Shown piece after piece: positions 14,871 to 59,980 of a stretch of 64,000 nucleotides of DNA. The stretch's first letter is position 1, and each line of letters begins with the position of its first letter. Made by a program: the position numbers and the translations under genes. Source of the stretch: Phycisphaerae bacterium (GTDB lineage: Bacteria > Planctomycetota > Phycisphaerae > UBA1845); NCBI GenBank assembly GCA_029260215.1, contig JAJDDQ010000075.1:27127-91126 (forward strand), read 5' to 3'. A model generated the notes under the pieces. It was not told the origin of the DNA, did no database searches, and saw only the letters and a list, made by a program, of their open reading frames with translations.

Positions 14871-17711
14871 ATGAACGAGTTTGCGAAACGGTGTGGTTGG
14901 TGTTCGTGCCTGGTGATGCTCGCAGGCGCAATGAACCAACGTGCAGCCGCAGAAGGGGCCTGCTGTCGGCCGGCGAATTGTATCCCAGCCACAGACGCGA
15001 CCGAATGTGATGTGTTCGGCGGCGTGTTTCTCGACGGCGAGGATTGCGCAGACAGCCCCTGCGAGATCGGAGCGTGTTGTTTCGAGCTGAATTGCGGCAT
15101 GCTCGATGCCTTCAATTGTATCTCCTCCGGGAGAGCGTTCGGCGGCGCGGGCACGACCTGTCTGGACGATCCCTGCGAATCCAACATCGGTGCCTGCTGC
15201 AACAGTGGGACGTGCAGCTTCGTTTCGCCGTTACAGTGCGGGAATGAGGGTGGAACCTGGCTGGGGGCTGGTACCAATTGCCAGACCAGCCCCTGCGACA
15301 TCGGTGCCTGCTGCCAGCCGGGCGCGTGCGCCGATCTTCCCGGCTTTGAATGCATGGCTACAGGTGGTACGTTCGTGAACGGTTTCTCATGCTCAGCCGA
15401 CGCATGCGAGCAAACGCTTGGCTGCCCGGCTGACTCCCTTTTTTCGCAATCCCGCGACGCGCCCTTGTTTTTCGCCTCCTATCTTTCCGAATCCTCACAA
15501 AACGCTCAAAGATCAGACAACTACGCCAACCTCCCCGGAGCCATCGCAGTCGTGCGCTGGTTCGCCCTGAGCCTCGCTTTCGACGGGGCAGCGTTCTCAG
15601 ACTGTGTCGATTCTTCGCCGATATTCGAGATCACATTCCACGAAAACAACGCCGGCACATTGGGTGAAGTCGTGTGTTCCTACACGATCGAAGCCCAGCG
15701 AACATTCACGGGCATCCCCTATCAGACCTTTGAAGCCGTCAAATACGAAGCCATCCTCCCAACGCCCTGCGTGGCTTCCACGGGTTGGATTTCCATCGTC
15801 GGGCTGGGCGATCCCGACTGCCGCCATTACTGGATCAGCTCGACGGACGGAGATCAGGCTTCGCTTTGCAGCAACTGCCCGGGCGGCCCGAACGTGGCCG
15901 ACGATTTCAACTTCTGCCTGCTCGGCAACGCCGGCGGCGTGTTCGGCGCGTGTTGCGACCAAAATATGGGATTTTGCTCTGAAAACGTCGAAATCCAGGA
16001 TTGTCTCGACGTGGGGCAGTTTTTCGCACCTGACAAGACCTGTGCGGAACTCGATCAACCGTGCGAAATCGTCCGCGGCGCGTGCTGTTTCAACAACGGC
16101 ACGCCCTGCTCGATCGAGGTGGAGGGTGATTGCGTCGCGGCTGGCGGGAGCTGGCTGGGCCGGGATACGGTTTGTGAACAGTGTCCGGCGGTCGGGGCGT
16201 GCTGCCTCGCTCAGGACGCATGTTTTATCGGAACTGAAAATAATTGCGGCGATGCCGGATTTTCCTTCATCGGGGCGGATACCGCCTGTGAGGACTGCCC
16301 CCCTCTGCCGGATTGCCCTGCGGACACGCTGTTCGGGCAGACGGTCGATGGGCCTAACGATTTCCTCTCCGGCACATCGGAAGCGAGTGCCGGATTCGCA
16401 CGTTTCGAGGATTTCGCGGGCGTGGCTGGCCCGATTGAACACATCACATTCTGGGGCCTCGATCTGGACAACATCGAGGGCACGAATGACTTTGTGGAGT
16501 GCGTCGAAGACGATCCGCAGTTCGAAATCGCGTTTCATCGCGATGCCAACGGTGTGCCCGGTGAACAGGTGTGCTCGTATACCGTGCTGGCTGAACGCAT
16601 TCCCACGCTTTTTGACTATCTGGGTGCCAACGTGATCGAATTCCGCGCGGTCCTGCCTGCCTCCTGCGTGCTCACCCGCGGCTGGGTCAAAATCGTCGGT
16701 TTGGGTGATGAGGATTGCTGGTTCTTGTGGCTTAGTGCGGGGCTTGGCGGATCGCTCTGCGAAGGCTGCTCGGTGGAACAGCAGGACGACGATTTCGCAT
16801 TCTGCCTGAACGGACCGGTGGGCGGTGTGACCGGTGCGTGCTGCGTCGATGAGACGGGCCAATGCGAGGAAAACGTCGATATCGCCGATTGCGCGCAATC
16901 CACGCAGCGTTTTCGCCCGGGGACCGCTTGTGCCGATCTCGACCCGCCTTGCGGAATTATCCTGGGCGCGTGCTGTTTTTCCGACGCGACCTGCTCTTTG
17001 AGCGAGGAGGTAAGCTGTCAAAAATCGGGCGGCGACTGGCTGGGGGCCAATTCCATCTGCGATTCCTGCCCGTGCATCACGCCCTGTCCGTCGGTCGGTG
17101 TTGCGGAGGGTGAGCCGGTTTGTTTCGACGATTACGACGACGTTTTCAACGGCGGATGCGATGCCGAAACGGTCGGTTTTTCACCTATCGGATTCGGTCA
17201 AACCGTATGCGGTCTGAGCGGTGTGTTCGTTGTGGATTTCGATTTTGTGGGCGATTTCGACTGGTTTGAAATCGAAGTCGCCGAGCCGACGATGCTGACG
17301 TGGATTGTCGAGGCGGAATTTCCGGCTGTCGTAGGCGTTGTCGACGGTACGGCTGGTTGCGCTGGGGCCAACGTTATCACGCTTCAATCCACGGATGAGT
17401 GCGACCCGCTGGAAATTACAGTCCCGGTGAACGCGGGAACCTATTGGCTGGTGGTCGGACCTTTGGCGGCCACCGATCTGGCAGCCTGCGGCAAGCGTTA
17501 CACAGCCGTCGTTCTGAACGCCAACGCCCCGCCGGGTGACGGCAACGGGGATGGCAATGTCGATCTGTTCGATCTGGACTTGTGGAACGCCTGCCTGGCT
17601 TCCCCCGGATCGACCGCGCCGCCGGCGTGTTTGGTCTTCGATTTCGACGGCGATCAAGACGTGGATTGGGCTGATAATGCGGTGTTCCAGCAGTTGTTCG
17701 GGGGGCGATAA
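14871..17711 (+). CDS. secreted modular protein: 9 GACC Cys-rich modules, two copies of a ~165-aa unknown domain, PPC-like domain, C-terminal dockerin-like domain
   Basis: ATG 14871 gives signal peptide MNEFAKRCGWCSCLVMLAGAMNQRAAA. Repeats are described in the findings. PPC-like segment FDFVGDFDWFEIEV...TYWLVVGP. Tail GDGNGDGNVDLFDLDLW...FDFDGDQDVDWADNAVFQQLFG. Confidence 0.8.
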   Translation: MNEFAKRCGWCSCLVMLAGAMNQRAAAEGACCRPANCIPATDATECDVFGGVFLDGEDCADSPCEIGACCFELNCGMLDAFNCISSGRAFGGAGTTCLDDPCESNIGACCNSGTCSFVSPLQCGNEGGTWLGAGTNCQTSPCDIGACCQPGACADLPGFECMATGGTFVNGFSCSADACEQTLGCPADSLFSQSRDAPLFFASYLSESSQNAQRSDNYANLPGAIAVVRWFALSLAFDGAAFSDCVDSSPIFEITFHENNAGTLGEVVCSYTIEAQRTFTGIPYQTFEAVKYEAILPTPCVASTGWISIVGLGDPDCRHYWISSTDGDQASLCSNCPGGPNVADDFNFCLLGNAGGVFGACCDQNMGFCSENVEIQDCLDVGQFFAPDKTCAELDQPCEIVRGACCFNNGTPCSIEVEGDCVAAGGSWLGRDTVCEQCPAVGACCLAQDACFIGTENNCGDAGFSFIGADTACEDCPPLPDCPADTLFGQTVDGPNDFLSGTSEASAGFARFEDFAGVAGPIEHITFWGLDLDNIEGTNDFVECVEDDPQFEIAFHRDANGVPGEQVCSYTVLAERIPTLFDYLGANVIEFRAVLPASCVLTRGWVKIVGLGDEDCWFLWLSAGLGGSLCEGCSVEQQDDDFAFCLNGPVGGVTGACCVDETGQCEENVDIADCAQSTQRFRPGTACADLDPPCGIILGACCFSDATCSLSEEVSCQKSGGDWLGANSICDSCPCITPCPSVGVAEGEPVCFDDYDDVFNGGCDAETVGFSPIGFGQTVCGLSGVFVVDFDFVGDFDWFEIEVAEPTMLTWIVEAEFPAVVGVVDGTAGCAGANVITLQSTDECDPLEITVPVNAGTYWLVVGPLAATDLAACGKRYTAVVLNANAPPGDGNGDGNVDLFDLDLWNACLASPGSTAPPACLVFDFDGDQDVDWADNAVFQQLFGGR

Positions 17712-18033
17712 CCGGACATTGTTCAATTGAGTGAAAATCGCAATAAAATCTCGTCCCGATCGTCGTGATTTCGCGCGTTCTCACCGGAGCGTGCGTACAA
17801 TTCGTTATTGTGACAGCCCGTTCGACTCGGTAGGATGGTTTCGTGGGTGGGTGGTTTGGCGATCGCAGCCGGCGCAGACGCGCCACGGCTTGCGGCGGAG
17901 TTCAATCCAATACGTTATCGGAACCGTGAAACGACCGCCTCGGGGCGATCGACCGGAGCGGCTGCGCCGTGTCGAATGGGGCCTTTTTTCAAGCACTCTG
18001 ATCAATAAGATTCTATACCTTCGGAAAACGACC

Positions 18034-21000
18034 ATGCTTCAGAACACAACGAACCGTCGCCGTGCGGGCATTCTATCGCGTCTGCTTTTCGTGCCGGTCC
18101 TGCTGGGGATCGGGTACGCGATGATGCAGGCTGGTCGCGCGCCGCAGGCGGTGACGACTCATCGCGACCAGACGATCGACACGCCAACGGTTGCGGACGC
18201 TCAGGCAGAGGCCAAGCGCGAGCGCATGCTTCTCAAAGTTGAGGCCAAGCGCGAGAAGATCAAGCGCAACGGCGCGAAGCGATACGATCAGCCTCAGGAA
18301 GCGATGGACTTTTTCGTGTCCCAGCGTGTGGGTCCGGGTGAGGACATTCCGTTCGACAGGCTGGCTGCTGCGCGCGACGACATTCGCAATCGTCAGGCTG
18401 CTTTGGGTCAGAATCCGCTGCAAGCGGCGGAGTCGGGCGGTGGGGGATGGATCGAGCTTGGTCCGGGCAACATCGGCGGTCGCACGCGGGCGTTCGTCAT
18501 TCACCCCGGAGACCCGAGCATTCTGTACGCGGCGGGCGTGGCTGGCGGGGTGTGGAAATCGACCGACGCGGGGGCGAGCTGGGTGGTTCTGGACGACACG
18601 ATGCTCAATCTCGCGGTTTCGACGCTGGCGATGGATCCGACGGATCCGGAAACGCTTTACGCCGGCACGGGCGAGGGATTCTTCAACGGCGGTTCGGTGC
18701 GCGGTGCGGGTATTTTCAAGACGACGGACGGCGGGGCGACTTGGGATCAGCTTTCCGGCACGGTTTCGGGGATTCCGAGCGGTGCGTTCAACTACGTCAA
18801 CAAGATCGTGATCAGCCCCAACGATGCGGACCGTCTCTACGCGGGCACGCGGTCGGGCGTTTGGCGGAGCTTGGATGCGGGCGTGTCGTGGTCGATTCTG
18901 CTGACCAATCCGCTCTGTCCGTTGAACAATCCCAGTTGCGGATTCGTCGGTTGCACGGATATCGCGGTGCGGTGGGATTCAGATCCCGACGTGCTCTTCG
19001 CCGCGTTCGGCAGCTTCACTGCGATTGGTCTGTTCCGCTCGCAAGACGGCGGGCAGACGTGGAACGAGATTGGTACACCGAGCAATTTGCAGCGTAACGA
19101 TCAGGGGCGTATGGCTATTGCGATCGCGCCGAGCAACAACGATGTAGTTTATGTTTGCATGGCCAACAACGGCGAGACCGATACGACGGGAGCGTTGGTT
19201 GACGTATTCCGCACCACAAACGGCGGCGACACGTGGAGCCCGCGTGTCAACTTGGCGGACGATATCAATCCGCTGCTGCTTTCCAACCCGTGTTTCACCG
19301 GTTCGTCGCAGGGATGGTATGACAACATTATCGCGGTGGACCCGCTGGATGAGGACATCGTGTGGGTGGGCGGCATCGACCTGTTTCGCTCGGACGACGG
19401 CGGGGTGAATTTCGGTGTGGCGGCTTTTTGGGAATCGGGCGACGACGATCCCGAGTACGTGCATGCCGATCAGCACATGATCGTGTTCCACCCGAATTAC
19501 AACGGAACCAGCAACCAGACGATGTACGCCACCGGCGACGGCGGGGTTTTTCGCACAGACAACGCCCGTGCCTCTACCAGTAACGAAGGCTGCCTGCCAT
19601 CGTTCAACCAATTGCCGGACATTGTGTGGACGAGTCTCAACAACGGCTATGGTGTTACGCAATTCTACCACGGCGACGCATCGCAGAGCACGGAGGTTTT
19701 CGGCGGCGGAGCACAGGACAACGGCACGAACCTGGTGACGTCATCGTCCACGCCGAACGACTGGTTCGAGATTCTCGGCGGCGACGGCGGGTACTTTTTC
19801 ATCAATCCGCAAAACCCGAATGTCATGTACGCCGAGACTCAGCGATTTCCAAGAATCCAGAAGTCGGTCAACGGCGGAATAAGCTTCTTCCCTTCGACGA
19901 ACGGCATTGACGAATTCGATGGCCTGTTCATCAACCCGTTCGCGATGGTTGACGCGAATCCCAATCTTCTGTGGACCGGGGCTACGCAACCCTGGCGAAC
20001 GACCAACGCGGCTGGCCTGTGGACTTCGGCGGGGCCGGATTTCGACAACGCCTTTCTCACGTCGGCGATTGCGATCGCACCTTCGGACAGCAGCGAAGTG
20101 TACTTCGGATTCTGCAATGGTTACGTGGCGCGCACTTCTGACGGCACGGCGGAACCGGTTACGTGGCAGGTATTCGGGGCTGCGAACGGCTTGCAGGCTG
20201 ATACGTTCGGCGATTTCTGCGGCTCGTGGATCAGCAGCATTGCATTCGACCCCACCAACCCGGACGTGGGCTATTGCACGTACTCGACTTACGGACTCAA
20301 CCACGTGCTCAAGACCACAAACGGCGGAAGCTCATGGTTCTCGATCGACGGGTTCGGGCAAACGGGGATACCGGACATTCCGGTTCACTGGATCGCGATT
20401 CGCCCCACCGACTCGAATGAACTTTTCGTCGGGACGGAGCTTGGCGTGTTTCGCAGTCTGGACGGAGGGTTGACCTGGGCACCGTTCAACAACGGCATGC
20501 CCAACACTGTGGTGGAGTCGCTCGATTTTCGGAATGAGAATGATCTGGTCGCGTTCACGCACGGCCGGGGTGCGTTCATGTTCCAACTGTCGCCGCCGGA
20601 TTGCAACGAAAACGGCGTAGAGGACATCGAAGACATTGTGAACGAAACCTCGCTGGACTGTAATGAGAATCTGGTTCCGGACGAATGCGATATCGCCGCA
20701 TGTTTCCCCGGCGGAGCGTTCTGCGGAGACTGTAACCAGAACGGGCTGCTGGACGATTGCGAGTTGCCGGACTGCAACGGAAACGGCAGGCCTGACGACT
20801 GCGACATTCTGTTGAATACCAGCGGAGACTGCAACAGCGATTCGATACCGGATGAGTGTGGGCCTGACTGCAATGACAATGGCACACCGGACGTGTGCGA
20901 CATTCTCAACGGCGTGCTGACGGACAACAACGCGAACAGTCTGGCTGACGAATGCGAGATCGTGTTTGTGGATCTCGCTTCGGCGGGCGGCGACGGCAGG

Positions 21001-23448
21001 AGTTGGGCGAACGCGTTCCCCAGCCTCAATGCGGCGTTTGAGGCGGCTGTGATGTCGGACAACGTTGTGCAGGAAATTTGGGTTATGGCTGGCGTGTACG
21101 CTCCGGCGGAAGCGGACGGAGCGCGCACGGAGTCGTTCCATCTGCCTTCGGGTGTGGCGGTCTACGGCGGGTTTGCGGGCGACGAGACTTTTCGCAACCA
21201 GCGCGATCCGGTTTCAAATCTGACGGTGTTGACGGGGGACCTGAACGGGAACGATCAGCCCGACGGCACGAACACGTTTGAAAATGCTTATCACGTGGTC
21301 ACGGTGTCGGCGGCTGACGGTGCGCACGACGGGACGACGCTGGACGGATTCACGATTCGCTCGGGCAACGCACAGGGCATTCCGCCGGACACCACGGGCG
21401 GGGGTGTGTGGATCGACGGGGGCGCTCCGACAATTCGCAATTGCATCATCGAAGACAACCTGAGTTTTCGCGGGGGTGGTGTCCATGTCGGCGGCGGGTC
21501 GGCTTCGTTTGTTGATTGCATTATTCGAGACAACAGCGCGGACACGGGGGGCGGCGTATCGACGGACTCAGGTGCGAACCCGTTGTTCGATGGCTGTGTT
21601 ATTGAGAGCAACGACGGGGGCGGGGTGCGCAACAGCGGCGGTGCGACGCCGACGTTCGGGGATACGTTTATTCGCGACAACGTGACCACCGGCGGCGGCG
21701 CGGGTGTGCAGAGCACGTCGGGCGCGACGGCGACCTATGAGCGTTGCTCGATCACGGGGAATGTGTCGATGTTCGGCGATGGGGGGGGGCTGTTCAACAG
21801 CAACGGCAGCGACTCCTTTATGACCGCGTGTCTGGTGTCCGACAACGAAGCGTTCAGTCGCGGCGGCGGGATGTACAACTTTGACAGTGATGTCGTCGCG
21901 GTCAATTGCGTTTTTTCGCAGAACCGGACGATGGATTCGGTCGGTACGGGTGGAGCGATGCACAACGCAGCCTCATCCCCGACGCTGACCAACTGCACCC
22001 TTTACAGCAACACGGCTCCGGGTGAGGGCGGCGGGCTGTACCACACGGGTGTGGGTACGACGCTGACCGTGACGAATTGCGTGGTGTGGAACAACACAGC
22101 CGGCGCTGTGGGCACGGTGGAGGATGCTCAGATTCGCCTGCCGTTCGGATCACCGGCGATCAACTATTCGAACATTCAGGGCTTGAGCGGCTCGCTGGGC
22201 GGGACCGGGAACATCGGTTCGTCCCCGCTGTTCGTCGGCGCACCGAGTAACCTTCGGTTGTCGGCTGGCTCTGCGTGCATTGACGCCGGCAACAATTCGG
22301 CTGACACGGATGCGACGGTCGCGGGTGTTCAGCCGCTGCCCAACACTGATTTTGACGGGAATCTTCGGTTCTTCGACGAGGCGTCTGCCCCCAATGTGGG
22401 CAACGGTCCGTCACCGATCGTCGATATGGGCGCGTTCGAGCGGCAGGACTGCACGCTGCCCACGGTAATCGGTCAGCCGGTTGATTCGGGCGGGTGCATC
22501 GGGAGCACTGTGGCTTTCGAAGTTCAGGTGGCTGGTACGCAGCCGATATCATTTCAATGGCGTCTCGATGGTGCGGAAATCGCCGGTGCTACCGACAGTG
22601 AACTGTCGATTGGGCCGATTCTGGTGGGAGACGCGGGCGCGTACGACGTGGTTATGATGAACGCATGCGGGAGTGTCACGACGGCGACGGCGACGCTGAC
22701 CATTGAAACCGAGATTCCGGAGATCACGCTTGACCCGTTCGGACAGTCGGTTTGTCCGGGTGATTCCGCGACGCTGACCGTTGAAGCGGTGGCGGAGGGC
22801 GGCGTGTTCTATCAATGGCGACGCAACGGTTCGGTGATTTCGGGTGCTACGGAGCCTTCACTGACGGTGGACAACTTTGGCCCGACAAACATCGGGAGCT
22901 ACACTGTGGCGGTAACGAATAGTTGCGGGACGGCGGTCAGCGCGGGGGCATTGCTTCAGACGGGTACGTCGCCGATTGTGACGGATCATCCGAGCGACGT
23001 CACGGATTGCAGCGGTTCGACGGTGATGTTTTCGGTGCAGGTCAACGCGACGGAGCCGTTGAGCTACCAGTGGCGGCACGATTCGGTGGACATTTCAGGG
23101 GCGACTGGTGTGACGCTGACGCTTTCGGGGATCGCGGTCGAGGATGGCGGTGCGTATGACGTTGTCGTTACCAACCCGTGCGGGCAGGACGTCAGTAGTG
23201 TGGCTACGCTTTCGGTTATCGCCGGGCCTTTCGGTGATTCTAACGGCGATTGCGACGTCGATCTGGCTGACTATCAGGTGTTTCAGTTGAGTTGTTTCTC
23301 GGACAACTCGCTTTCACCGAACTTCGTTCCGCCGCCCGCGGGTTGTCTGCATCTGGATTCGGACGGCGACGGCGATGTGGACGTGTTCGACTTCGGCGCG
23401 TTCCAGGCGACCTTCGGCGACATTGTGCAGGACGTGCCGGAGGAGTAA
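18034..23448 (+). CDS. giant secreted protein: BNR/Asp-box beta-propeller - DCNxNGxPDxCDI repeats - right-handed beta-helix - 3 Ig-like domains - dockerin-like tail
   Basis: ATG 18034 (MLQNTTNRRRAGILSRLLFVPVLLGIGYAMM signal-anchor). About 8 Asp-boxes (STDAGASW, TTDGGATW, SLDAGVSW, SQDGGQTW, TTNGGDTW, TTNGGSSW, SLDGGLTW...). Gly/Asn-rich PbH1-like repeats. Three YQWR..G..ISGAT...D.G.Y.V.V.N.CG units. Tail GDSNGDCDVDLADYQVF...DSDGDGDVDVFDFGAFQATFG. Confidence 0.85.
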   Translation: MLQNTTNRRRAGILSRLLFVPVLLGIGYAMMQAGRAPQAVTTHRDQTIDTPTVADAQAEAKRERMLLKVEAKREKIKRNGAKRYDQPQEAMDFFVSQRVGPGEDIPFDRLAAARDDIRNRQAALGQNPLQAAESGGGGWIELGPGNIGGRTRAFVIHPGDPSILYAAGVAGGVWKSTDAGASWVVLDDTMLNLAVSTLAMDPTDPETLYAGTGEGFFNGGSVRGAGIFKTTDGGATWDQLSGTVSGIPSGAFNYVNKIVISPNDADRLYAGTRSGVWRSLDAGVSWSILLTNPLCPLNNPSCGFVGCTDIAVRWDSDPDVLFAAFGSFTAIGLFRSQDGGQTWNEIGTPSNLQRNDQGRMAIAIAPSNNDVVYVCMANNGETDTTGALVDVFRTTNGGDTWSPRVNLADDINPLLLSNPCFTGSSQGWYDNIIAVDPLDEDIVWVGGIDLFRSDDGGVNFGVAAFWESGDDDPEYVHADQHMIVFHPNYNGTSNQTMYATGDGGVFRTDNARASTSNEGCLPSFNQLPDIVWTSLNNGYGVTQFYHGDASQSTEVFGGGAQDNGTNLVTSSSTPNDWFEILGGDGGYFFINPQNPNVMYAETQRFPRIQKSVNGGISFFPSTNGIDEFDGLFINPFAMVDANPNLLWTGATQPWRTTNAAGLWTSAGPDFDNAFLTSAIAIAPSDSSEVYFGFCNGYVARTSDGTAEPVTWQVFGAANGLQADTFGDFCGSWISSIAFDPTNPDVGYCTYSTYGLNHVLKTTNGGSSWFSIDGFGQTGIPDIPVHWIAIRPTDSNELFVGTELGVFRSLDGGLTWAPFNNGMPNTVVESLDFRNENDLVAFTHGRGAFMFQLSPPDCNENGVEDIEDIVNETSLDCNENLVPDECDIAACFPGGAFCGDCNQNGLLDDCELPDCNGNGRPDDCDILLNTSGDCNSDSIPDECGPDCNDNGTPDVCDILNGVLTDNNANSLADECEIVFVDLASAGGDGRSWANAFPSLNAAFEAAVMSDNVVQEIWVMAGVYAPAEADGARTESFHLPSGVAVYGGFAGDETFRNQRDPVSNLTVLTGDLNGNDQPDGTNTFENAYHVVTVSAADGAHDGTTLDGFTIRSGNAQGIPPDTTGGGVWIDGGAPTIRNCIIEDNLSFRGGGVHVGGGSASFVDCIIRDNSADTGGGVSTDSGANPLFDGCVIESNDGGGVRNSGGATPTFGDTFIRDNVTTGGGAGVQSTSGATATYERCSITGNVSMFGDGGGLFNSNGSDSFMTACLVSDNEAFSRGGGMYNFDSDVVAVNCVFSQNRTMDSVGTGGAMHNAASSPTLTNCTLYSNTAPGEGGGLYHTGVGTTLTVTNCVVWNNTAGAVGTVEDAQIRLPFGSPAINYSNIQGLSGSLGGTGNIGSSPLFVGAPSNLRLSAGSACIDAGNNSADTDATVAGVQPLPNTDFDGNLRFFDEASAPNVGNGPSPIVDMGAFERQDCTLPTVIGQPVDSGGCIGSTVAFEVQVAGTQPISFQWRLDGAEIAGATDSELSIGPILVGDAGAYDVVMMNACGSVTTATATLTIETEIPEITLDPFGQSVCPGDSATLTVEAVAEGGVFYQWRRNGSVISGATEPSLTVDNFGPTNIGSYTVAVTNSCGTAVSAGALLQTGTSPIVTDHPSDVTDCSGSTVMFSVQVNATEPLSYQWRHDSVDISGATGVTLTLSGIAVEDGGAYDVVVTNPCGQDVSSVATLSVIAGPFGDSNGDCDVDLADYQVFQLSCFSDNSLSPNFVPPPAGCLHLDSDGDGDVDVFDFGAFQATFGDIVQDVPEE

Positions 23449-25380: not shown

Positions 25381-25632
25381 TGCTGAAAAATCACTCGCTA
25401 AGTCGGCGAACCCCGCGCCGGAAATTCGGAAAACCGAAACCTTATCGGTCGCGGGGGCGTTGCGTCAAGAAATCGTACGGGCGAGGCTGATTCGCGGTCC
25501 TCAGAATCAACCGACATGCCCCGCCTCTGAAGAGTCAATCGGCGAAGATGAGCGTAGAGTAAAAGGAACGTTTCCCGGCACATTCGTGGGCACAACGTCG
25601 GTCGTCGCACTGGGCCTGCCGCCGCGAGCCCG

Positions 25633-26949: not shown

Positions 26950-27002
26950 TAGAATAAACACACACTGACAATGGGAGCCATTCACTCCTGCGGAACCGGA
27001 CG

Positions 27003-30366: not shown

Positions 30367-30443
30367 GACAAAACTCCCCTGCCACATTCACATCGGACAC
30401 GTGTTCGAATCGCCGTTTCCGCAATGCAATCACGCAGCACGTT

Positions 30444-33665: not shown

Positions 33666-33688
33666 GTCGAAATCCTTTTGTTGTGAGA

Positions 33689-47351: not shown

Positions 47352-50300
47352 CTAGCGGATGCTTCGGGATGCACCCGAAGTGACAACAACGACAGCCGGA
47401 GTCGTCTTTGTGATTTCAATCTTGTCACGATCGTCCGCGCCGACCAGGAATGTCTGGTCGCCGGCAGACTCATCGTGCAGGATGTCAATCACGAACGTAC
47501 CGACCGCGTCATCAGACACGCGATAGGTGAACGTGGCAAGATAACCCTTGCCAGCCGTCGCGACGAAACCGTCGCCGTGCAGACCGCTGAGCATCTGACT
47601 CGTGCCCACGTTGAACGCGTCAAAAACGCCGCTGGCGGTGGCGAACACATCATCGTCGCGATCCGCGATCGACACATCCACCAACTCAAGCGAGCCGCTG
47701 CGACCACCGGTCACACCCGTGTGTACCTGGTAACCGCTCAAGGCGGCCAGTGGACTGTTGACGTACGCCTGCACCTGGAACGTCGCACCGCGACGCACTG
47801 TACGGTTGCTGGTTTCGAGCGTCAGGCCCGTGCCACCGACAATATTCGGCCCCATCTCGGGAGCGGGGCCACCGACCGGCTCGCAGAAGCCGCCAGTACA
47901 GACGCCGGAAATGCATTCGCTGGGAAGCGTACACGCATTGCCCGGAGTGCAGGTACAAGGGTTCGCAACCGCAAAGCAGGATGCGGCGTGGTTGGCATCG
48001 AACAGGTTGCCGAAGCCGTCCGGCGGGCAGGCACCAAACGGACCCCCCGCGTCGATGTTGATACCCGAACACGGGTTCGCAGTGGCGAATCTCAACAACG
48101 CATGGTTGATGTCGGCGTTGTTGCAGAAGCCGTCCGGCTCGCAATTACCGAACCCACCACCCATATCCGACGGATCGGTCAACGCGACAGACAAGCATTC
48201 GTCCGGAGCACTGGGCACGCACGGACCACCCGCCCCGCAGTCGCTGTCCTCGCTACAAGGCTGGGTCGGATCGCCGGTGCACGTTCCACCCCCACACTGC
48301 CACCACACGCAGACATTATCGGTCTTGTTGTCGGCTCCCGGTGCCAAAGTCACGTTGTCGACAAGGTCCGCACACTCGTCCGCGCCACCACCTGGGCAGC
48401 TCGGCCCCGTCGGGAAAACACACGTGCTGGGGCATCCATCGCCGTCCATGACGTTGCCATCGTCGCAATCTTCGCCGAGTTCAACGTAACCATTGCCGCA
48501 CGAGATACACGCATCAACGCACGTCGGCGTGAACGTGTGAGCACACGGATCGGTCAACGCGTCTATCAGAACCAGCGATGCCGCTTCATCCACACCGAGA
48601 AGGGCACCGTCAGCAGAGATATCCCATTCAGCGGCGTTAAATGTCGCAGTGGGCGAAACCACCGTCGGCAAACGACGGGCGAGCGTATCCTGCATCGCCC
48701 ATACAGGCGAGAAATCGTTGGAATTCGCCACCTCGCCGATCACACCGTAAATGTCTAATAGCGTCGCGTTGGTACCGTTTCCGACCGCCAATCCGCGATA
48801 AAGAACGACCGGATCGTTTCCGTTGATGAACGGGCCGCTCGCATCTGCCACAGGATCACAGTCCGTGCCGTAGATGTTCTCGAAATTCGGCGCGCCCGCG
48901 AAGTCATACGCGAAGATGGCCGACTCGCCAGGCAGCAAAATGCCCGACAAAGCCGTGGCACTGCCGCCACCAAGGTTTCCGGTCTCATTCGGGAAATTCC
49001 CCGCACTGTATGCGGAGAGGTTCGCTTCACGGCAACCCGTATTGGTGATCTCGACGTAGCGCGGCGCGTCCGAGTCGAACGGGCCCAATGGATCAATCGT
49101 GATCGTTCCTTCAACGACCTCCGAAATGATCAACTGTGTCGCTGGCGGGCAATCGCACATTGGCAGTCCAAGACAAGCGCTGCCGTCGCCGAGGTAGCGT
49201 CCACCGTTCGTTTCGCAAACAAGCTGCGTCACCGGGTCAAGACACGTGCCTTCCGTGCAACAGGCACCTTCAGCGCCGACCACAGGACAGGTAAAGCCCA
49301 CCGACTCGCACAAATTCGTGCCGTCGAAGAACAAGCCCAACCCGTCACAGAAATCCTCAGCCGTGTTGAAACAGGTCTGAAGCTGATCGCAACAGGCACC
49401 AAGCACATCATCACCAAATGCACAGTCCACCACACCCGGCGAACCAACATCATTCGGGGAGAACGTGCCATCGTCGATCGCATTGACCGCTGCGTTCACA
49501 CCCAGCAACGAATCGACCCAGTTCAGACCTGAATCATTGTCACCTTGCGGATCGGCACCATTGATCGCCGTACACAATAAGCGAATACCTATGCCCTGGC
49601 CGCTCGCGGGCCAATCGCCCGTATTCTCATAGTTGGCTTCGTCAATCGTGATGCCGTTGGCACCGCCCGGCTGGCGGATTGTCAACACCTCGTTCGTCGC
49701 GGTCGGGCCGTTGGACAAACCAAACGTCGAACCCCAACCGGACACCGCAAACACCTGCGCACCAGCCGCAGTAGACCAAGCCGCCTGGAAGTCAGCAGCA
49801 GCGGTCATGCCCACGTTTTCAGCGGTAATCACAACAGCCTCACCCGGTCCGATCATCGTGCCCATCGGCAAAGCACCAGCCGCTCCGTCCTCATCAGCAA
49901 GGAACCAGCCGCCAATGTCGATCGTCGATCCGCCGAAGTTGTAGATTTCCGCCCATTCCGTCGCCGGCTCAGAGCCCGACGGATTGTAGAGAATCTCCGA
50001 AATCACGATCGTCGGTGGCGCGGGACACATTACCGGCAAAGAACACAAATCCGGGCCCAGGAACGTACCGCCAGCCACGCTGCACTCGATCTCACTCTGA
50101 TCGCCGCATACGCCAAGGATGCAGCAGGCAGCTGGCGTGCAATCCAGCGTGCCGCACGTATCGCCGACCGAGAACGCTCCAGTAATGCCGACATCCGCAT
50201 CTTCACATTCCACCCGGCTGACCGAGTCCGTGCATGTACCCTGGAAACAGCAAGCGCCGCACTCGTTGGCGGTACCCGGCGTATCGCTGCCGACGGCTGT

Positions 50301-51941
50301 GATAAAGCTTGCAATCTGCCACCCACCCGTGCCGTCGTCGCAACGGAAACTGTGAGCCGGCACGACTTCGCCGAACGACGCGATGTCCGGCCCGATCGAC
50401 GCGCCGCAATAGGTTTCGTTGCCATCGACAGACGTGTTGAACAACGTGATGCAATCGACAACCGACGTCCACGGTGTTGTGTCCAGCACACCGTCGTCAT
50501 CCGTATCGAGATCGTCATCCAAAGCGCCCGTGAATCCGCTGACGAGCATGTGTGTGACATTGTCGCCGTTCTCGAAATTCAAAATCTGCATCAAATCCGG
50601 CGTACCGGAAAGAATGTACGACGGCTCCGTGCCCAGGAAAAAGCCCGACCCGTTAAGCGAAAGCGCGCCAAGATCGATCGCTTCCTCAACCACGCCCGAA
50701 CCGTTGATCATGTTGAAATCATCGCCGAGCACGATGTACGTCAAACCAGCCAACGATGCATTCGCCGGTCCAGTCAACTCAAAATACTCAGCCTGGTCGT
50801 CGGGGTTGATAGCGCTTTCGGCATCGGTGCGAAGTTCGTTGATCGTCACGCCCGTCGGTGCGGCACAAACCTGCGCGTTGCAAAGTGAAGCGTCGCCACC
50901 GTACACGCCGCCGCCCTGCTCACAAACCGCCTGCCTCACATCTGCGTAACAGTTCCCGCCAGAGCAGCAGGCCCCAACCGCAACGCAGGATTCCGCGCAT
51001 GTCTGGTTGGCATTGAACAATTCCGTGGGACCGGTGCAGGCAGTAGCCAGCACGCTCTCCACGCAACTGAAATTACTGGTATCGCAGCACGCGCCCGTGG
51101 CAGGGCCAACCAGTGGCTCGCAAATACCCGGCGACGGCGCGGTAAACACGCTGTCCCAGGTAACCGCGATGTTCTCGGTCGTCTCATCGTGACCCGTAAT
51201 CCCGTTGCCGCTAACCGCGACCTCGTCCGCACCCTCCAGTGCGATACGCTTCGTGGAAAAACCGAAACCCGGATCCCCACTCTGCTGCGGCATGGTCACC
51301 GCATCAGCAAGGTAGTTGGTTGCAATGGCGTCAGCGTCGGGGCCGTCAACAGACACCAACGATTTGTCCGCGATGGCGTTGACGATCGTAGGCGTACCGA
51401 CATTCACCATGTCAACGTCTTGGACCAGATCGCTCACACCGTCCCAGAAGAACAGCACGACGTTCTCACCGCTATTGGAAAGCCCCATAGCGAAGCCACC
51501 CATCGGAGGCTCGAACTCGATAATCATGTCCGGAACCGTGCCGTCCGTCGAATTGATTTCGTAGTCCGCAGTGTTGCCGGGAAACGTCGCCGCGAAGCCG
51601 GTACCGTCGAACGCGATGACTTGCACCTCGTTGGCAGCGATCATCGCACCAGCCGGAAACCGCACAATGAAGTCACTGCTCACGCCAACCGGAGCCGGTC
51701 CACCTCCCGATACGCCCGGAATCAACGCGTAATCCGCATAATCCGACAGATAGTAATTGCTCAAATCAATCGTACCCGCCGTAGGATTGACGATCTCGAT
51801 GTATTCGCCCGCCGTCGGTGTCACAACCACCTCACACAACAGCAGATGATCGTTCACCGGCACGCCGGCAGACGCCGACGAGCACAGCCAAGCAATACTG
51901 CACGCAAGCGTGAGCATTCGTCCTCTGATACTGAGTTGCAT
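47352..51941 (-). CDS. giant secreted protein: several lamin-tail domains, 6 GACC modules, Cys-braced dockerin-like pair, C-terminal cohesin-like domain
   Basis: ATG 51939-51941 lies 6 nt after TAAGGAGG. Signal peptide MQLSIRGRMLTLACSIAWLCSSASA. LTDs LLLCEVVVTPTAGEYIEIVNP, VTINELRTD...EYFELTG, IVISEILYNPSG...EWAEIYN and LIISEVVEG...RYVEITN. The C-terminal ~190 aa is roughly 85% identical at DNA level to the two downstream paralogues. Confidence 0.85.
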   Translation of the reverse strand: MQLSIRGRMLTLACSIAWLCSSASAGVPVNDHLLLCEVVVTPTAGEYIEIVNPTAGTIDLSNYYLSDYADYALIPGVSGGGPAPVGVSSDFIVRFPAGAMIAANEVQVIAFDGTGFAATFPGNTADYEINSTDGTVPDMIIEFEPPMGGFAMGLSNSGENVVLFFWDGVSDLVQDVDMVNVGTPTIVNAIADKSLVSVDGPDADAIATNYLADAVTMPQQSGDPGFGFSTKRIALEGADEVAVSGNGITGHDETTENIAVTWDSVFTAPSPGICEPLVGPATGACCDTSNFSCVESVLATACTGPTELFNANQTCAESCVAVGACCSGGNCYADVRQAVCEQGGGVYGGDASLCNAQVCAAPTGVTINELRTDAESAINPDDQAEYFELTGPANASLAGLTYIVLGDDFNMINGSGVVEEAIDLGALSLNGSGFFLGTEPSYILSGTPDLMQILNFENGDNVTHMLVSGFTGALDDDLDTDDDGVLDTTPWTSVVDCITLFNTSVDGNETYCGASIGPDIASFGEVVPAHSFRCDDGTGGWQIASFITAVGSDTPGTANECGACCFQGTCTDSVSRVECEDADVGITGAFSVGDTCGTLDCTPAACCILGVCGDQSEIECSVAGGTFLGPDLCSLPVMCPAPPTIVISEILYNPSGSEPATEWAEIYNFGGSTIDIGGWFLADEDGAAGALPMGTMIGPGEAVVITAENVGMTAAADFQAAWSTAAGAQVFAVSGWGSTFGLSNGPTATNEVLTIRQPGGANGITIDEANYENTGDWPASGQGIGIRLLCTAINGADPQGDNDSGLNWVDSLLGVNAAVNAIDDGTFSPNDVGSPGVVDCAFGDDVLGACCDQLQTCFNTAEDFCDGLGLFFDGTNLCESVGFTCPVVGAEGACCTEGTCLDPVTQLVCETNGGRYLGDGSACLGLPMCDCPPATQLIISEVVEGTITIDPLGPFDSDAPRYVEITNTGCREANLSAYSAGNFPNETGNLGGGSATALSGILLPGESAIFAYDFAGAPNFENIYGTDCDPVADASGPFINGNDPVVLYRGLAVGNGTNATLLDIYGVIGEVANSNDFSPVWAMQDTLARRLPTVVSPTATFNAAEWDISADGALLGVDEAASLVLIDALTDPCAHTFTPTCVDACISCGNGYVELGEDCDDGNVMDGDGCPSTCVFPTGPSCPGGGADECADLVDNVTLAPGADNKTDNVCVWWQCGGGTCTGDPTQPCSEDSDCGAGGPCVPSAPDECLSVALTDPSDMGGGFGNCEPDGFCNNADINHALLRFATANPCSGINIDAGGPFGACPPDGFGNLFDANHAASCFAVANPCTCTPGNACTLPSECISGVCTGGFCEPVGGPAPEMGPNIVGGTGLTLETSNRTVRRGATFQVQAYVNSPLAALSGYQVHTGVTGGRSGSLELVDVSIADRDDDVFATASGVFDAFNVGTSQMLSGLHGDGFVATAGKGYLATFTYRVSDDAVGTFVIDILHDESAGDQTFLVGADDRDKIEITKTTPAVVVVTSGASRSIR

Positions 51942-52126: not shown

Positions 52127-54850
52127 TTATTCGAGGCGCACGCGTCCGAAAGAACCGCCACGCACACCAAACACGATCGTGCCGCCCACAAGCAGCAACA
52201 AAACCATCAACATCACACCCCATTCCGAAACCGTCGGAATCACCGAACAAGGATTCGGATCGCAGGATCCTCCGGGCGTAAACACATCAGCCGTCCCGTT
52301 GCACAACGATGCCACAACCTCATCACAACTCGCATCGGGACGACAGCACGCACCCGGAAGCTCACAATTCACAAGCCCGCAATCGCTCGCATCTCCCTGA
52401 TAGACACCGCCAAGAGACGTACAAAACGGATCGCTCACGTTCGCAACACACGCACCAGCCGAGCAACACGCCCCGACCACGCACACATTCGCATTTCCCG
52501 GCGTATCCGCACCACCGACCGGATCGTCCGCACCGATCAGCCACGCCCCATTGTCGTTCTGACATCGAAAAACGTGCTGCGGACCAATCCCGCCGTTAGG
52601 CCCAACTGTGTCCGCACAATACGTCGGATCGCCACCGCCGATTTCATCCAAAACCGCCAGGCAATCGAGCATTACCAACCAAGGTGTCACGTCCAGCACG
52701 CCGTCGTCGTTGGTATCAAGGTCTTGATTGTTCACGCCGGAGAATCCGGTCACCAGAAGATGGGTCACATTGTCGCCGTCCTCGAAATTCAACGCGACAA
52801 GCGCATCCGCCACCGCACCAAACGTGTCGCCGTCCTCCGCAGCCAGGAGATACCCATCCGCGGGAATAACGGCGTCACTGAGATCGATAATCGCCTCAAT
52901 TCTACCACCGTCAAACGCGTCACCAATAACCAGATACGTCAGCCCGAACAGCGACGAACCCGGAGGACCGGACAACTCGAAGTATTCATCGTTCTCCGCG
53001 CCAGGCTGGGTAATGCGAATCTCGTTGATCGTGGTGTCGGGGCACGTACCGTTGCAAACTGTTGCATCGCCTTGATAGATACCTCCAACCGCATCGCAGA
53101 AAAACTCGGAGGTTTCCGAACAGGAACCAGGCAAACAACACGCGCCGTCCGGATCAGCCGAACACAACGGAACCAAATCAACACAATCCACACCAGCAGT
53201 GAACGTCAACTGCGGACCGACACAATCGATACTGTCAATCGGGAAGTTGCAAACCCCCGTCAACGCATCGCAACACGCGCCGCTGACAACCGCACACGCG
53301 TTGGCCGCCCCCGGCGTATCGCTACCACCGACCGGATCATCCTGGCCAATCCTCCACACACCCGTTTCATCCGGACATCGAAAAACGTGCATCGGTGCGG
53401 TCAAAATCGCCGAAGGCCCCACCTGCGGCGGACCATAGTGAAACTCGGTGAACGTCGGCGGATTGTCCTCACGAATCACGGCGATGCTGTCGATCAGCTC
53501 CGTTCCAAGCGCGAAATCCAAAACACCGTCATCATTCGTATCGAGATCGTCGCCCACTGAACCCGTGAACTGATACACCAGCATGTGCGTTACATTGTCG
53601 GCATCCTCGAAGTTCAAAGTCGTCGTCAGGTCAGCCGACCCCAGCGTGAATCCACCCGTCGCGATCGTGAAAAATCCACTTGCACCGACGGTCTGCCCGT
53701 TCAGGCTGACCAACTCTTCAATCACACCGCTGCCGCCCGCACCGTCGCCAAGCACCAGATAAGTCACGCCGGCGAGCGAAGTCCCGGGCGCCGCCGCAAG
53801 CTCAACATACTCGTCAACGTCACCACCCGGCTGATCGATGCGAATCTCGTTAATCGAAACGTCCGGCGCGGGCGCACCAGAGAGCATCACGATATCCACA
53901 ACAACGGGCAGATGGTCGGAAGCGGTCAGGCTCGTTACAGAAGGAAGCGGCCCGCCGCAAAGCGCGATCCCCCCGCCGATACCCTCGTCAGCGGAATCAT
54001 AAACCTCCGACGCAACCACCACCGCCGCGTCGCTCGTCCAGATGTAGTCCAATCGACGCCCCGAAGCAGGCCGCGTCGCCGCGTCACCCACCGGAAACAG
54101 TTGAAAAGCATCAACCACAGTTATGTTCTGCGCACCAACGCCCGCCTCCAGCGGGCTGAATACACTGTTGACGAAGCCAGGAACCGGCAGCATAGCCGCC
54201 ATGTCGTTGCCGATCTGAAAACTGATTGGCAAGCCCGCCGGGAGAGAAGTGAAAAGAGCCGGCGAGTTAATCCCGAACTCGTCGTTCATATCACCAAGCA
54301 CCAGGTACGGCACAACCGTCGAATCGTACGCACTCGATATCTGCATCGCACGCGTGGACTCCAGCGAACGCCTGAATTCGTCGTCGTTCCCACCGCCCGA
54401 TTTCCAGTGGTTCCCGATAAGCACCAAGTCCTGCGCGGCACCAGCCACATCGATCTCAGCCACCATAAAATTCCGGGTCAAATCCCGCGATCCGCCGTCG
54501 CCCGAGATCGTGATCGACGTCTCCGTCATCGTCATTGTGAAAGGCCAATCGCGACTCATCACGCCCGTACGCAGCACACCATCGATCGCATTGCTCGTCG
54601 TCGCAATCACCCGGAACGGATAACCCGCCTGATCCGCCAGCGCAGTAAACGCCGCCGTCGAACGCATCTCCTGCACACACACGACATCCGCACAGACGCG
54701 ATTCAATACATCCACCGCCGCTTCGATCTGAGCACCGGTCGTCGTATTGAGATTTTCAATGTTGTACACCGCGATACGAACCGGAACCTGCGCAGACGCG
54801 CAGCACGGGAACGCCACCACAATCAAGGACACAAAAAAGTTTCGCTTCAT
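52127..54850 (-). CDS. ExeM/NucH-like extracellular nuclease: EEP domain + two lamin-tail composite modules + 4 GACC modules + IPTL-CTERM sorting tail
   Basis: ATG 54848-54850. Signal peptide MKRNFFVSLIVVAFPCCASA. EEP motifs IAVYNIENLN, DVVCVQEMRS, LVLGDMNDE and LTASDHLPV. LTDs VSINEIRIDQPGGDVDEYVELA and TTINEIRITQPGAENDEYFELSG. C-terminus IPTVSEWGVMLMVLLLLVGGTIVFGVRGG. Confidence 0.85.
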   Translation of the reverse strand: MKRNFFVSLIVVAFPCCASAQVPVRIAVYNIENLNTTTGAQIEAAVDVLNRVCADVVCVQEMRSTAAFTALADQAGYPFRVIATTSNAIDGVLRTGVMSRDWPFTMTMTETSITISGDGGSRDLTRNFMVAEIDVAGAAQDLVLIGNHWKSGGGNDDEFRRSLESTRAMQISSAYDSTVVPYLVLGDMNDEFGINSPALFTSLPAGLPISFQIGNDMAAMLPVPGFVNSVFSPLEAGVGAQNITVVDAFQLFPVGDAATRPASGRRLDYIWTSDAAVVVASEVYDSADEGIGGGIALCGGPLPSVTSLTASDHLPVVVDIVMLSGAPAPDVSINEIRIDQPGGDVDEYVELAAAPGTSLAGVTYLVLGDGAGGSGVIEELVSLNGQTVGASGFFTIATGGFTLGSADLTTTLNFEDADNVTHMLVYQFTGSVGDDLDTNDDGVLDFALGTELIDSIAVIREDNPPTFTEFHYGPPQVGPSAILTAPMHVFRCPDETGVWRIGQDDPVGGSDTPGAANACAVVSGACCDALTGVCNFPIDSIDCVGPQLTFTAGVDCVDLVPLCSADPDGACCLPGSCSETSEFFCDAVGGIYQGDATVCNGTCPDTTINEIRITQPGAENDEYFELSGPPGSSLFGLTYLVIGDAFDGGRIEAIIDLSDAVIPADGYLLAAEDGDTFGAVADALVALNFEDGDNVTHLLVTGFSGVNNQDLDTNDDGVLDVTPWLVMLDCLAVLDEIGGGDPTYCADTVGPNGGIGPQHVFRCQNDNGAWLIGADDPVGGADTPGNANVCVVGACCSAGACVANVSDPFCTSLGGVYQGDASDCGLVNCELPGACCRPDASCDEVVASLCNGTADVFTPGGSCDPNPCSVIPTVSEWGVMLMVLLLLVGGTIVFGVRGGSFGRVRLE

Positions 54851-58774: not shown

Positions 58775-59980
58775 CTAATTGTTCACGGGGATCACGAGGC
58801 GCTGAAAAACAGCGAAGTCACGAAAGTCGATATCGCCGTCCAAATCGAGGTCGAATATATCAAGACACACGGGCGGCATCCGCACACCGCACGCGACGTT
58901 GCTCATGCAGTTCTGCATGGATTCAAAATCGAATCGGTCGATACGACCATCGCCTGTGAAATCCCCTGGTGCCCGAACCCGCCACATCAACCAAATGTCT
59001 TTCTCGGGAAGATCTCCCAACTCAAGCGATACCTCCCCGAGATCGTTGATATCTGCGCCGCTTATTCCCAAAGCTGCGGAGTTCGTGAGTTGGTATCTGT
59101 TTTCCCCACGTTCCAAAAACGGAGTCCAGAACTCCCCCGTCCATCGTGGCCACATAAGATCACCACCGTTGTTCAATAAGGGCCCACGGTCATCGAAGCC
59201 GGTAAACGGAACTGCTGTCGTGATTCCGTTGTTCCATCGCTTCAATCCATTCTGGTGCCAACCCACGACACCGTCATCACTTATGGTACATCCCTGTGCC
59301 TGTGTTGTTCCGTCAGTCAGCTCATGCGTAGCACCATCGACAAAGCATAAGATCGTCGATCGCCACGACGGCTCTACGCTGAAGTCGTAAGCGATCCACG
59401 CGTAATCTTCGTCCTCGTTGATTCGCACGCAGGCGTTGGCTAGCCCGTTGTTCGTAACCTGTGTTACGATGCCGTCACGGTACTGCACCAATTCCACCAT
59501 CTCACCGGTCGGGCCTCGCGACCACATGATCAGCCCGGTATCGGCAATGTCGGGCCGAGCATCATGCACGTCGTTGTCCGTTAGCTGCTCAATCACGCCA
59601 TCGCGCCAGCGGAACACCTCCGTGTCGTCACCGGCGAACGCGGCTTGCCTGTACCAAACGATGGTGCCGTTATCATTTATCCTGGCCCCTTGGTCCTGAA
59701 AATTGTCGAACGTAAGTCGTCGCAGTTTGCCGTTGTCGTAGAGGAAGATTTCTTCACGCGCGCTGTCCGGCATCCGCTTGGAGAACACGATCTGGCCAAT
59801 GTTGTTCATGGCCACGTGTTCGTCGAGTTCGGGATCGTCGGTGATTTTGACGATTTCCCAGCCCGGCGGTGGACCTTGGATGATCGCTGGCCCCGGTCTT
59901 TCGGCGCGGGTGGTAGGTGTGGTAAACAGGGCGGACAACAACAACGCGGCGCATACCGCGACTTCGGCGAGTTTTGACAT
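58775..59980 (-). CDS. secreted repeat protein (beta-propeller-like ..DG....LT....IN..G.IVW units) with C-terminal dockerin-like domain
   Basis: ATG 59978-59980 follows GGAG. Signal peptide MSKLAEVAVCAALLLSALFTTPTTRA. Tail GDFTGDGRIDRFDFESM...LDLDGDIDFRDFAVFQRL. Confidence 0.7.
   Translation of the reverse strand: MSKLAEVAVCAALLLSALFTTPTTRAERPGPAIIQGPPPGWEIVKITDDPELDEHVAMNNIGQIVFSKRMPDSAREEIFLYDNGKLRRLTFDNFQDQGARINDNGTIVWYRQAAFAGDDTEVFRWRDGVIEQLTDNDVHDARPDIADTGLIMWSRGPTGEMVELVQYRDGIVTQVTNNGLANACVRINEDEDYAWIAYDFSVEPSWRSTILCFVDGATHELTDGTTQAQGCTISDDGVVGWHQNGLKRWNNGITTAVPFTGFDDRGPLLNNGGDLMWPRWTGEFWTPFLERGENRYQLTNSAALGISGADINDLGEVSLELGDLPEKDIWLMWRVRAPGDFTGDGRIDRFDFESMQNCMSNVACGVRMPPVCLDIFDLDLDGDIDFRDFAVFQRLVIPVNN

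Follow-up and report, generated by a model that had tools for sequence, protein, structure and literature searches.

Predicted cohesin-fold modules and dockerin-type tails on neighbouring secreted proteins of a Phycisphaerae-like planctomycete

Introduction

Can one planctomycete locus encode both halves of a cohesin–dockerin system outside the cellulosome, and would these halves hold its secreted proteins together? The question is raised by a stretch of 64,000 nucleotides (nt) of contig JAJDDQ010000075.1 (assembly GCA_029260215.1, positions 27,127 to 91,126 of the forward strand), referred to below as the window, whose own numbering is used for all positions. Ten of its genes, lettered A to J, encode proteins that all open with a signal-peptide-like hydrophobic segment, read directly from the sequence. 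Proteins bearing predicted cohesin-fold modules (F, G and H), proteins bearing predicted dockerin-type tails (A, B, C and E) and an adaptor-type protein with both (D) are encoded side by side.

In bacteria, no high-affinity parts for building protein assemblies are better understood than cohesin–dockerin pairs. Outside cellulosomes, to our knowledge, their partners and roles are almost unknown. An original prediction, made from the letters of positions 14871-59980, read this neighbourhood as an extracellular assembly in which such pairs link nucleases with giant adhesin-like proteins. The analyses described here support the identity of both kinds of module, the cohesin fold as well as the dockerin-type tail, and they support the interpretation as an assembly in part.

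Dockerin-type tails

The profiles (hidden Markov models, HMMs) of the tail and of the cohesin-like module were built solely from sequences outside the window in order to avoid circularity, and the background for the scans consisted of 695 six-frame open reading frames (ORFs) of the window of at least 50 amino acids (aa). The tail profile picked exactly five of the 695 ORFs, genes A to E, with every match at the extreme C-terminus and E-values from 1e-20 to 2e-8. These are the five secreted proteins on which tails with a duplicated Ca loop had been predicted. Their features are as follows:

Gene A, 14871..17711, plus strand: 946 aa; signal peptide, 'GACC' Cys-rich repeats (nine, each ~40 aa) and an internal pair of ~150-aa repeat domains
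Tail of A, nt 17523-17708 (aa 885-946), plus strand: dockerin-type; tail HMM E 1.4e-20; loops DGNGDGNVDLFD and DFDGDQDVDWAD
Gene B, 18034..23448, plus strand: 1804 aa; sortilin/BNR-type propeller, right-handed beta-helix, three immunoglobulin (Ig)-like domains
Tail of B, nt 23221-23445, plus strand: dockerin-type; tail HMM E 1e-15
Gene C, 33689..35047, minus strand: 452 aa; endonuclease/exonuclease/phosphatase (EEP) domain, Pfam Exo_endo_phos (24.4 bits; cut-off 24.5)
Tail of C, nt 33692-33880, minus strand: dockerin-type; tail HMM E 1.7e-8; Gly at position 9 in both loops
Gene D, 35140..39405, minus strand: adaptor-type, 1421 aa; N-terminal region of 650 aa, GACC repeats, lamin-tail-domain (LTD)-like module at aa 915-1110
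Tail of D, nt 35143-35328, minus strand: dockerin-type, after a Cys-rich linker; tail HMM E 3e-10
Gene E, 58775..59980, minus strand: 401 aa; secreted protein
Tail of E, nt 58778-58978, minus strand: dockerin-type; tail HMM E 5e-16

The alignment of the five tails contains ten invariant columns, and the loops follow a duplicated DxDxDGxxDxxD pattern. In all ten loops, positions 1, 5 and 12 are Asp and position 8 is hydrophobic; position 3 is Asp or Asn in nine of ten, and position 9 is Asp in eight of ten. Between the two loops of a tail, which are 32-40 residues apart, lies a conserved pair of Cys residues in the pattern C-x-x-G-P...C, and a Pro/Gly linker precedes the first loop, where there is no entering helix. 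The F-hand of dockerins differs from the EF-hand in having Asp instead of Glu at position 12 and in missing the E-helix. Judged by the Ca-loop pattern, Asp 12 and the absent entering helix, the tails would be two-loop modules of dockerin type I.

In comparisons of the isolated tails with Pfam Dockerin_1 (PF00404; gathering threshold 22.9 bits), the tail of E exceeded the threshold with 26.2 bits, those of A (22.7), D (14.2) and B (7.1) stayed below it, and the tail of C gave no match. NCBIfam has no model for the tail, and apart from the Dockerin_1 score of its tail, gene A matched nothing in the Pfam and NCBIfam scans. In the wider tail family, 24 of 38 members matched Dockerin_1 (E <=0.01) versus 4 of 38 for any EF-hand family. 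Searched against PDB, the five-tail profile returned EF-hand pairs at ~1e-6 and one dockerin, 5lxv_B, at 1e-5, and the tail of E aligns over its full length with the solved type I dockerins 5nrm_B (E 0.005) and 2vn5_B.

Ordinary EF-hand pairs were considered as another identity for the tails. They are disfavoured by Asp 12 in all loops, by the missing entering helix, by the C-terminal place of the tails and by the dominance of Dockerin_1 at the family level. The assignment of the tails as dockerin-type modules is thus supported at the level of sequence, and we infer their Ca-binding geometry from the loops.

A further segment of gene D (aa ~690-750, ~37150-37340), GDVNDDNLVDVFDELCVLDA...CEQDGVVDTDDVSVWAGAF, looks like a pair of Ca loops of which the first is canonical and the second degenerate; it lies below the threshold of the tail HMM (E 0.14).

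Cohesin-fold modules

The module profile picked exactly four of the 695 ORFs, namely F, G and H, where the match is C-terminal, and D, where it is internal (E 1e-70 to 2e-20). The module is a beta domain of ~170 aa. Cohesin-like segments had been predicted on precisely these four proteins. In addition, G and F each have an N-terminal module, whose family is homologous to that of the C-terminal modules by hhalign (probability 99.6%, E 2e-23, 143 columns). The modules and the genes that carry them are as follows:

Internal module of D, nt 35434-35937 (aa 1157-1324), minus strand: cohesin-fold; cohesin-like HMM E 3.5e-20
Gene F, 42581..44677, minus strand: paralogue of G; N-terminal cohesin-fold module interrupted by a TAA codon
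C-terminal module of F, nt 42665-43171, minus strand: cohesin-fold; C-type HMM E 1.1e-60
Gene G, 44775..47219, minus strand: 814 aa; signal peptide, galactose-binding-like domain, Cys-rich region, duplicated Cys motif
N-terminal module of G, nt 46545-47123 (aa 33-225), minus strand: cohesin-fold, homologous to the C-terminal type
C-terminal module of G, nt 44778-45293, minus strand: cohesin-fold, ends ...SRSIR; C-type HMM E 1.8e-62
Gene H, 47352..51941, minus strand: 1529 aa; signal peptide, lamin-tail domains and LTD-like modules, GACC repeats, myxo-type Cys-rich repeat, duplicated Cys motif
C-terminal module of H, nt 47355-47870, minus strand: cohesin-fold; modelled with AlphaFold2 (aa 1357-1529)

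The AlphaFold2 model of the H module, based on a 44-sequence alignment, reached a predicted local distance difference test score (pLDDT) of 95.1 and a predicted template modelling score (pTM) of 0.87. When it was compared with PDB using Foldseek, cohesins took 49 of the top 50 places, with a best E of 4e-7 and target-normalised template modelling (TM) scores of 0.60-0.75. These matches span types I, II and III as well as the cohesins of Archaeoglobus fulgidus and Clostridium perfringens, and the sole non-cohesin among them was the CLIPPER adhesin domain. An earlier, shallow model (8 sequences, pLDDT 68) gave the same ranking. The module is therefore modelled with the nine-stranded jelly roll of cohesins; a different fold, which would have contradicted the original prediction, was not obtained.

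The sequence bridges to cohesins are weak. The identity of the module to solved cohesins is only 10-17%, and ScaB cohesins of R. flavefaciens are the best two PDB matches of the family profile (E 0.022 and 0.068). Pfam Cohesin (PF00963) matched one of the 44 C-type family members (7.8e-5), which is not among the five most divergent rows, those that include the module of D. A single-sequence phmmer search of the module against PDB returned only noise, and NCBIfam has no model for it. We conclude that the modelled fold of the module is that of a cohesin, and remote homology to cohesins is likely.

Gene F had been taken for one intact ORF, which it is not. Past the signal peptide, an in-frame TAA at 44501-44503 stands where the paralogue G has CAT. 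Moreover, a frameshift in the C-run 42666-42671 swaps the canonical ...SRSIR end for a 22-codon extension, and the canonical ...SRSIR-stop end is still present in another frame. The two lesions together make F a probable pseudogene, provided that they are not both errors of the assembly.

Proposed assembly

As the best of the explanations considered, we tentatively put forward, at somewhat less than an even chance, that these proteins form a Ca-dependent, non-cellulosomal assembly resembling the 'planctosome' hypothesised for other Phycisphaerae (see below). After Sec export, the Ca2+-loaded tails would bind the cohesin-fold modules non-covalently. The connectors would be G, through its pair of modules, and D, through its combination of module and tail; the LTD-rich H would be the platform, and A, B, C and E would be recruited to an extracellular or cell-surface assembly. 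We infer the binding, stoichiometry, localisation and substrate of such an assembly.

The co-location of the parts speaks for it: five tails and six cohesin-fold modules lie within 45 kb, and D has both kinds. Nine genes form a co-directional array on the minus strand, running from 54850 to 32391 in the order I-H-G-F-AAA_17 protein-N-methyl protein-D-C-J, with I first. The gaps in the array range from 23 to ~670 nt, and the five junctions that join module-bearing genes measure 23-186 nt. An LTD-like module is common to D, H and I. Evidence from elsewhere also counts in favour: about a third of the relatives carry 2-4 cohesin-fold modules, in a scaffoldin-like manner, and in another metagenome-assembled genome (MAG; locus L011) a full-length homologue of E lies directly downstream of a cohesin-like gene.

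Relatives in other genomes and alternative explanations

When 1.84 billion representatives were searched with the module profile, 1045 clusters (50% identity) matched at E <=1e-3, 200 of them at E <=1e-30. The family of the module is therefore a large one that lacks annotation, with no entry in Pfam or NCBIfam.

Several observations on the window and on these relatives weigh against the assembly. No anchor is evident on any cohesin-bearing protein of the window, one of these proteins is the product of the probable pseudogene F, and none of the four profile-matched modules of the window is recognised by Pfam Cohesin, even at E 10. The tail profile fits EF-hand pairs (calmodulin, troponin C) as well as dockerins. 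The module is C-terminal in 139 of 151 relatives, and in 101 of the 139 C-terminal copies (73%) the last residue is Arg. Directly upstream of the C-terminal modules, two copies of a Cys motif, DxGGxFGxCxPDGFCNxHDxNHALxCFxGxNxC, are conserved almost without exception, and besides the window they were seen in 133 relatives. The passengers are very diverse, and a Pfam scan of 10 proteins found M12B reprolysin (protein P0063), a P-domain (P0013), beta-helix, FG-GAP repeats and YWTD repeats; such a spread resembles that of tags rather than that of scaffoldins. Finally, only 4 of 151 cohesin-like proteins also have a tail, and within 10 kb a tail gene is found at one of 13 cohesin-centred loci and a cohesin-like module at none of three tail-centred loci. 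Since co-occurrence is so rare elsewhere, the co-location seen in the window is unusual and not typical. Dockerin genes are scattered also in cellulosome producers.

In the window, the duplicated Cys motif, for which Pfam has no model, is preceded by a DxDGxxDDxCxWxxC region and has these approximate positions:

Duplicated Cys motif of G, 45294-45530, minus strand
Duplicated Cys motif of H, 47871-48180, minus strand
Duplicated Cys motif of F, 43172-43400, minus strand

A degenerate dockerin was ruled out as its identity (hhalign probability 0.7%). At the other end of the module, the terminal Arg of G (44778-44800) and H (47355-47380) closes a stretch of ~8-10 residues past the last strand, e.g., ...TSGASRSIR. 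This stretch may be a recognition or processing signal.

The C-terminal features open a different explanation of the module. The whole cassette, consisting of a Cys-knot region, the duplicated Cys motif, the cohesin-fold domain and a basic, Arg-ended tail, would be a lineage-specific sorting or anchoring tag that targets its passengers for outer-membrane export or surface attachment, as an analogue of the C-terminal domain (CTD) of the type IX secretion system (T9SS); the dockerin-type tail would then be an alternative tag and not a partner. Besides the prevalence of terminal Arg and the almost universal retention of the Cys motif, this explanation draws on the position of the module, which in no fewer than 75% of the 150 best relatives reaches to within two residues of the C-terminal end, on its spread over more than 1000 clusters with unrelated passengers that include a metallopeptidase, and on the small number of local co-occurrences with tails. 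It is also favoured by homologues of the passenger domains of A and B that are fused to the cassette in other MAGs. It leaves unexplained, as far as a pure C-terminal signal is concerned, the 38 of 180 modules that are internal or N-terminal, as well as the internal copy of D and the N-terminal copy of G. No dedicated machinery is identifiable in the window, and the fold fits a known protein-binding module and not known sorting domains. We consider a sorting tag somewhat unlikely, and it is the strongest competitor of the assembly. It does not fully exclude the assembly, as the cassette could bind a dockerin-bearing anchor.

The fusions just mentioned were seen at L010 3266-10495, L015 4043-10618 and L012 8060-10555 (Planctomycetota MAG), where the A-/B-like passenger domains carry the cassette and not a dockerin-type tail; cassette and tail therefore look interchangeable. 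The most novel form of this idea, with the cassette as an undescribed surface-display or secretion address system of Phycisphaerae that recruited the cohesin fold as its C-terminal tag, and with the Cys-bridged tails as docking partners or as an interchangeable second tag, strikes us as unlikely.

Two further loci bear on the pairing of tails and modules. At L018 8406-14816 (JGI 3300048074), three consecutive genes have a Cys-bridged dockerin-type tail, one of them together with RCC1/WD40-like repeats, and no cohesin-like module was found within 10 kb of the three. At L009 33-13919 (Phycisphaerae MAG OFTM5), three consecutive genes (~1400, 2085 and >1200 aa) have 2-3 cohesin-fold modules each, which is a scaffoldin-like tandem, with no tail gene at the locus.

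Such separate clusters of tail genes and of cohesin-like genes would be expected if there were no specific assembly and the two kinds of domain were independent accessories, found together only because genes for secreted proteins are concentrated here in a genome that has many of each kind. The tails would be EF-hand-like domains with a Ca-dependent stabilising role or a glycan- or cell-wall-binding one, and the beta-sandwiches would be generic binding or spacer domains. The equal fit of the tail profile to calmodulin and troponin C agrees with this, and many genomes reportedly have dockerins without cohesins. Chance neighbourhood does not readily account for five tails and six modules in 45 kb, with an adaptor and a double-module connector among their carriers, nor for the E-like tail gene that adjoins a cohesin-like gene in a second genome. 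Moreover, the structural match is specific to the cohesin fold and not merely to Ig-like sandwiches, and Asp 12 together with the missing entering helix are dockerin traits. Independent accessory domains are in our view quite unlikely.

Nucleases and other cargo domains

The proposed assembly had been credited with two EEP proteins as cargo. Three EEP proteins are present, C, I and J, in all of which the motifs N.., QE and SDHxPV are visible, and only C among them has a tail. Genes I and J belong to the minus-strand array:

Gene I, 52127..54850, minus strand: 907 aa; EEP domain (Exo_endo_phos 34 bits), two LTD-like modules, GACC repeats
C-terminus of I, nt 52130-52240, minus strand: IPTL-CTERM-like membrane anchor, IPTVSEWGVMLMVLLLLVGGTIVFG...; Pfam IPTL-CTERM 19.1 bits against a cut-off of 20.8, TIGR04174 also just under its cut-off
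Gene J, 32391..33665, minus strand: 424 aa; EEP nuclease-like secreted protein (ExeM/NucH type) that follows C after a gap of 23 nt; neither a tail nor a cohesin-fold module
Best lamin-tail stretch of H, nt 49755-50021 (aa 641-729), minus strand: Pfam LTD 1e-28, one of 3 stretches in H

Gene I has neither a cohesin-fold module nor a dockerin-type tail. Its putative IPTL-CTERM-like signal implies an anchoring system of the exosortase/archaeosortase type in this genome. J matches Pfam Exo_endo_phos_3 (7e-24) and scores 49.9 bits (2.3e-13) with the ExeM_NucH_DNase model of NCBIfam (NF033681), under its cut-off of 300 bits, and C and I do not match this model. Searches of PDB with the sequences of the three EEP proteins gave no match.

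The lamin-tail domains of the original prediction are present in H; in D and I, the Pfam LTD assignment is unsupported (best E 0.053), and these proteins have merely a module paralogous to the LTD-like one of H. This module of ~190 aa, with the start INEIRIDxPG and 44-53% identity between copies, is found in D (aa 915-1110), H (aa 359-556) and I (aa 329-514 and 604-785). It is faintly LTD-like, with a Pfam LTD E of 0.05 and a BLAST E of ~9e-4 to the genuine LTD of H. In gene B, the predicted BNR propeller and beta-helix were confirmed by the Pfam matches Sortilin-Vps10 and Beta_helix, and Ig domains were added to them (Ig_3, I-set).

The array includes both protein I, with its EEP and LTD-like domains and its putative membrane anchor, and the secreted J with its EEP domain. 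This suggests a shared role in the processing of nucleic acids or other phosphoester polymers, and from sequence such a theme of the array is plausible. The link of the assembly to DNA is weakened by the fact that, within the cohesin–dockerin network, it comes down to C, the only tailed EEP protein, which stands at the Pfam threshold. The LTDs would be candidates for the capture of DNA.

Among the remaining features, the GACC repeats (~40 aa, GACCxxGxCxxxxxxxCxxxGGxxxGxxxxC) occur in A (9 copies), D (3), H (5) and I (4), and have no match in Pfam or NCBIfam. The galactose-binding-like region of G matches Pfam GBD_T9SS_assoc weakly, and H matches TIGR02232 in the NCBIfam scan.

Genomic context

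The window has ~59% G+C and encodes a prepilin-type N-methyl protein, which is a planctomycete hallmark. In the species-level genome collection, relatives of the cohesin-fold module were found in Phycisphaerae/Planctomycetota MAGs only (OFTM5, OFTM285 and LOGT_bin.0161). The genome is that of a Phycisphaerae-like planctomycete.

Genes A and B, on the plus strand, occupy 14.9-23.4 kb and are separated from the minus-strand array by signal peptidase I and a cluster of MacB/HlyD-type transporter genes, and gene E lies at 58.8-60.0 kb. In the stretch between B and J (23647-32348), the signal peptidase I has a large insertion; after it come a pair of MacB-type permeases together with an ABC ATPase, a Yip1 protein and adaptors of HlyD type. 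The cluster could be an export system for the adjoining secreted proteins.

Comparison with known systems

A closely similar hypothesis has been known since 2019, the 'planctosome' of the Nemodlikiaceae, freshwater Phycisphaerae, which was purely computational (Andrei et al. 2019 ISME J, PMC6461901). Its parts are a large LTD protein with a cohesin at its end, an adaptor that bears a dockerin as well as a cohesin, and hydrolases with dockerin tails, and it is non-cellulolytic (PMC6461901). The later papers that we found merely cite the idea, which appears to remain computational. The window belongs to the same class and has the corresponding parts, with an LTD protein ending in a predicted cohesin fold (H), an adaptor (D) and a tailed EEP protein (C). 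It differs in the cargo, which in the published case consists of M12B/M14 peptidases and here of an EEP nuclease/phosphatase, a propeller with a beta-helix, and Cys-rich proteins; the Pfam and NCBIfam scans detected no peptidase, P-domain or HYR domain in the window proteins. New here are the divergent, unannotated cohesin-fold family with its conserved C-terminal cassette and the nuclease-type instead of peptidase cargo.

With the cellulosomes of Clostridia and Ruminococcus (CipA, ScaA, ScaB; PDB 1aoh, 5lxv, 5n5p), the window shares the predicted nine-strand jelly roll, the C-terminal duplicated 12-residue Ca loop with Asp 12, and the occurrence of adaptor and multi-cohesin proteins. Unlike in cellulosomes, the module is mostly the last domain and ends in Arg, its identity to their cohesins is in the low range given above, and a Cys pair lies between the loops of the tail. 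Moreover, there is no carbohydrate-active enzyme as cargo, no CBM3 and no S-layer homology (SLH) or sortase anchor, and the host is a diderm planctomycete.

Non-cellulosomal cohesins (Peer et al. 2009), such as those of A. fulgidus (2xdh) and of C. perfringens GH84C (2jh2/2w1n), likewise have the cohesin fold outside cellulose degradation, and they were matched by the model of the H module at Foldseek ranks 7, 22 and 24. Those cohesins, in contrast to the modules of the window, were found by standard cohesin profiles, and for C. perfringens the partner (FIVAR-dockerin) was shown experimentally.

The ExeM/NucH nucleases combine LTD, EEP and a C-terminal sorting signal, and gene I has a similar combination of an EEP domain, LTD-like modules and a C-terminal anchor signal; J is the protein that scores with their model. 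The scores are far under the NCBIfam cut-offs, the putative anchor of I is IPTL-CTERM-like and not GlyGly-CTERM, and nuclease activity is a prediction here.

The T9SS CTD resembles the cassette as a functional analogue only: in either case, a beta-sandwich forms the very C-terminal end of secreted passengers that number in the hundreds and are unrelated to one another. The cassette differs from it in the cohesin fold, in its larger size (~170 aa plus the Cys motif of ~75 aa) and in the existence of internal copies. We know of no T9SS in planctomycetes.

Significance

The locus provides a compact set of six cohesin-fold modules, in three subtypes, and five tails, including an adaptor, with which non-cellulosomal surface assemblies of planctomycetes can be tested. 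It also exposes a large unannotated cohesin-fold family that is striking for its C-terminal placement and its terminal Arg. If the pairing is true, the window would hold the first concrete binding pairs for the planctosome idea of 2019 and new orthogonal parts for protein engineering, and the assembly of this planctomycete would be tied to extracellular nucleases, not to peptidases or cellulases.

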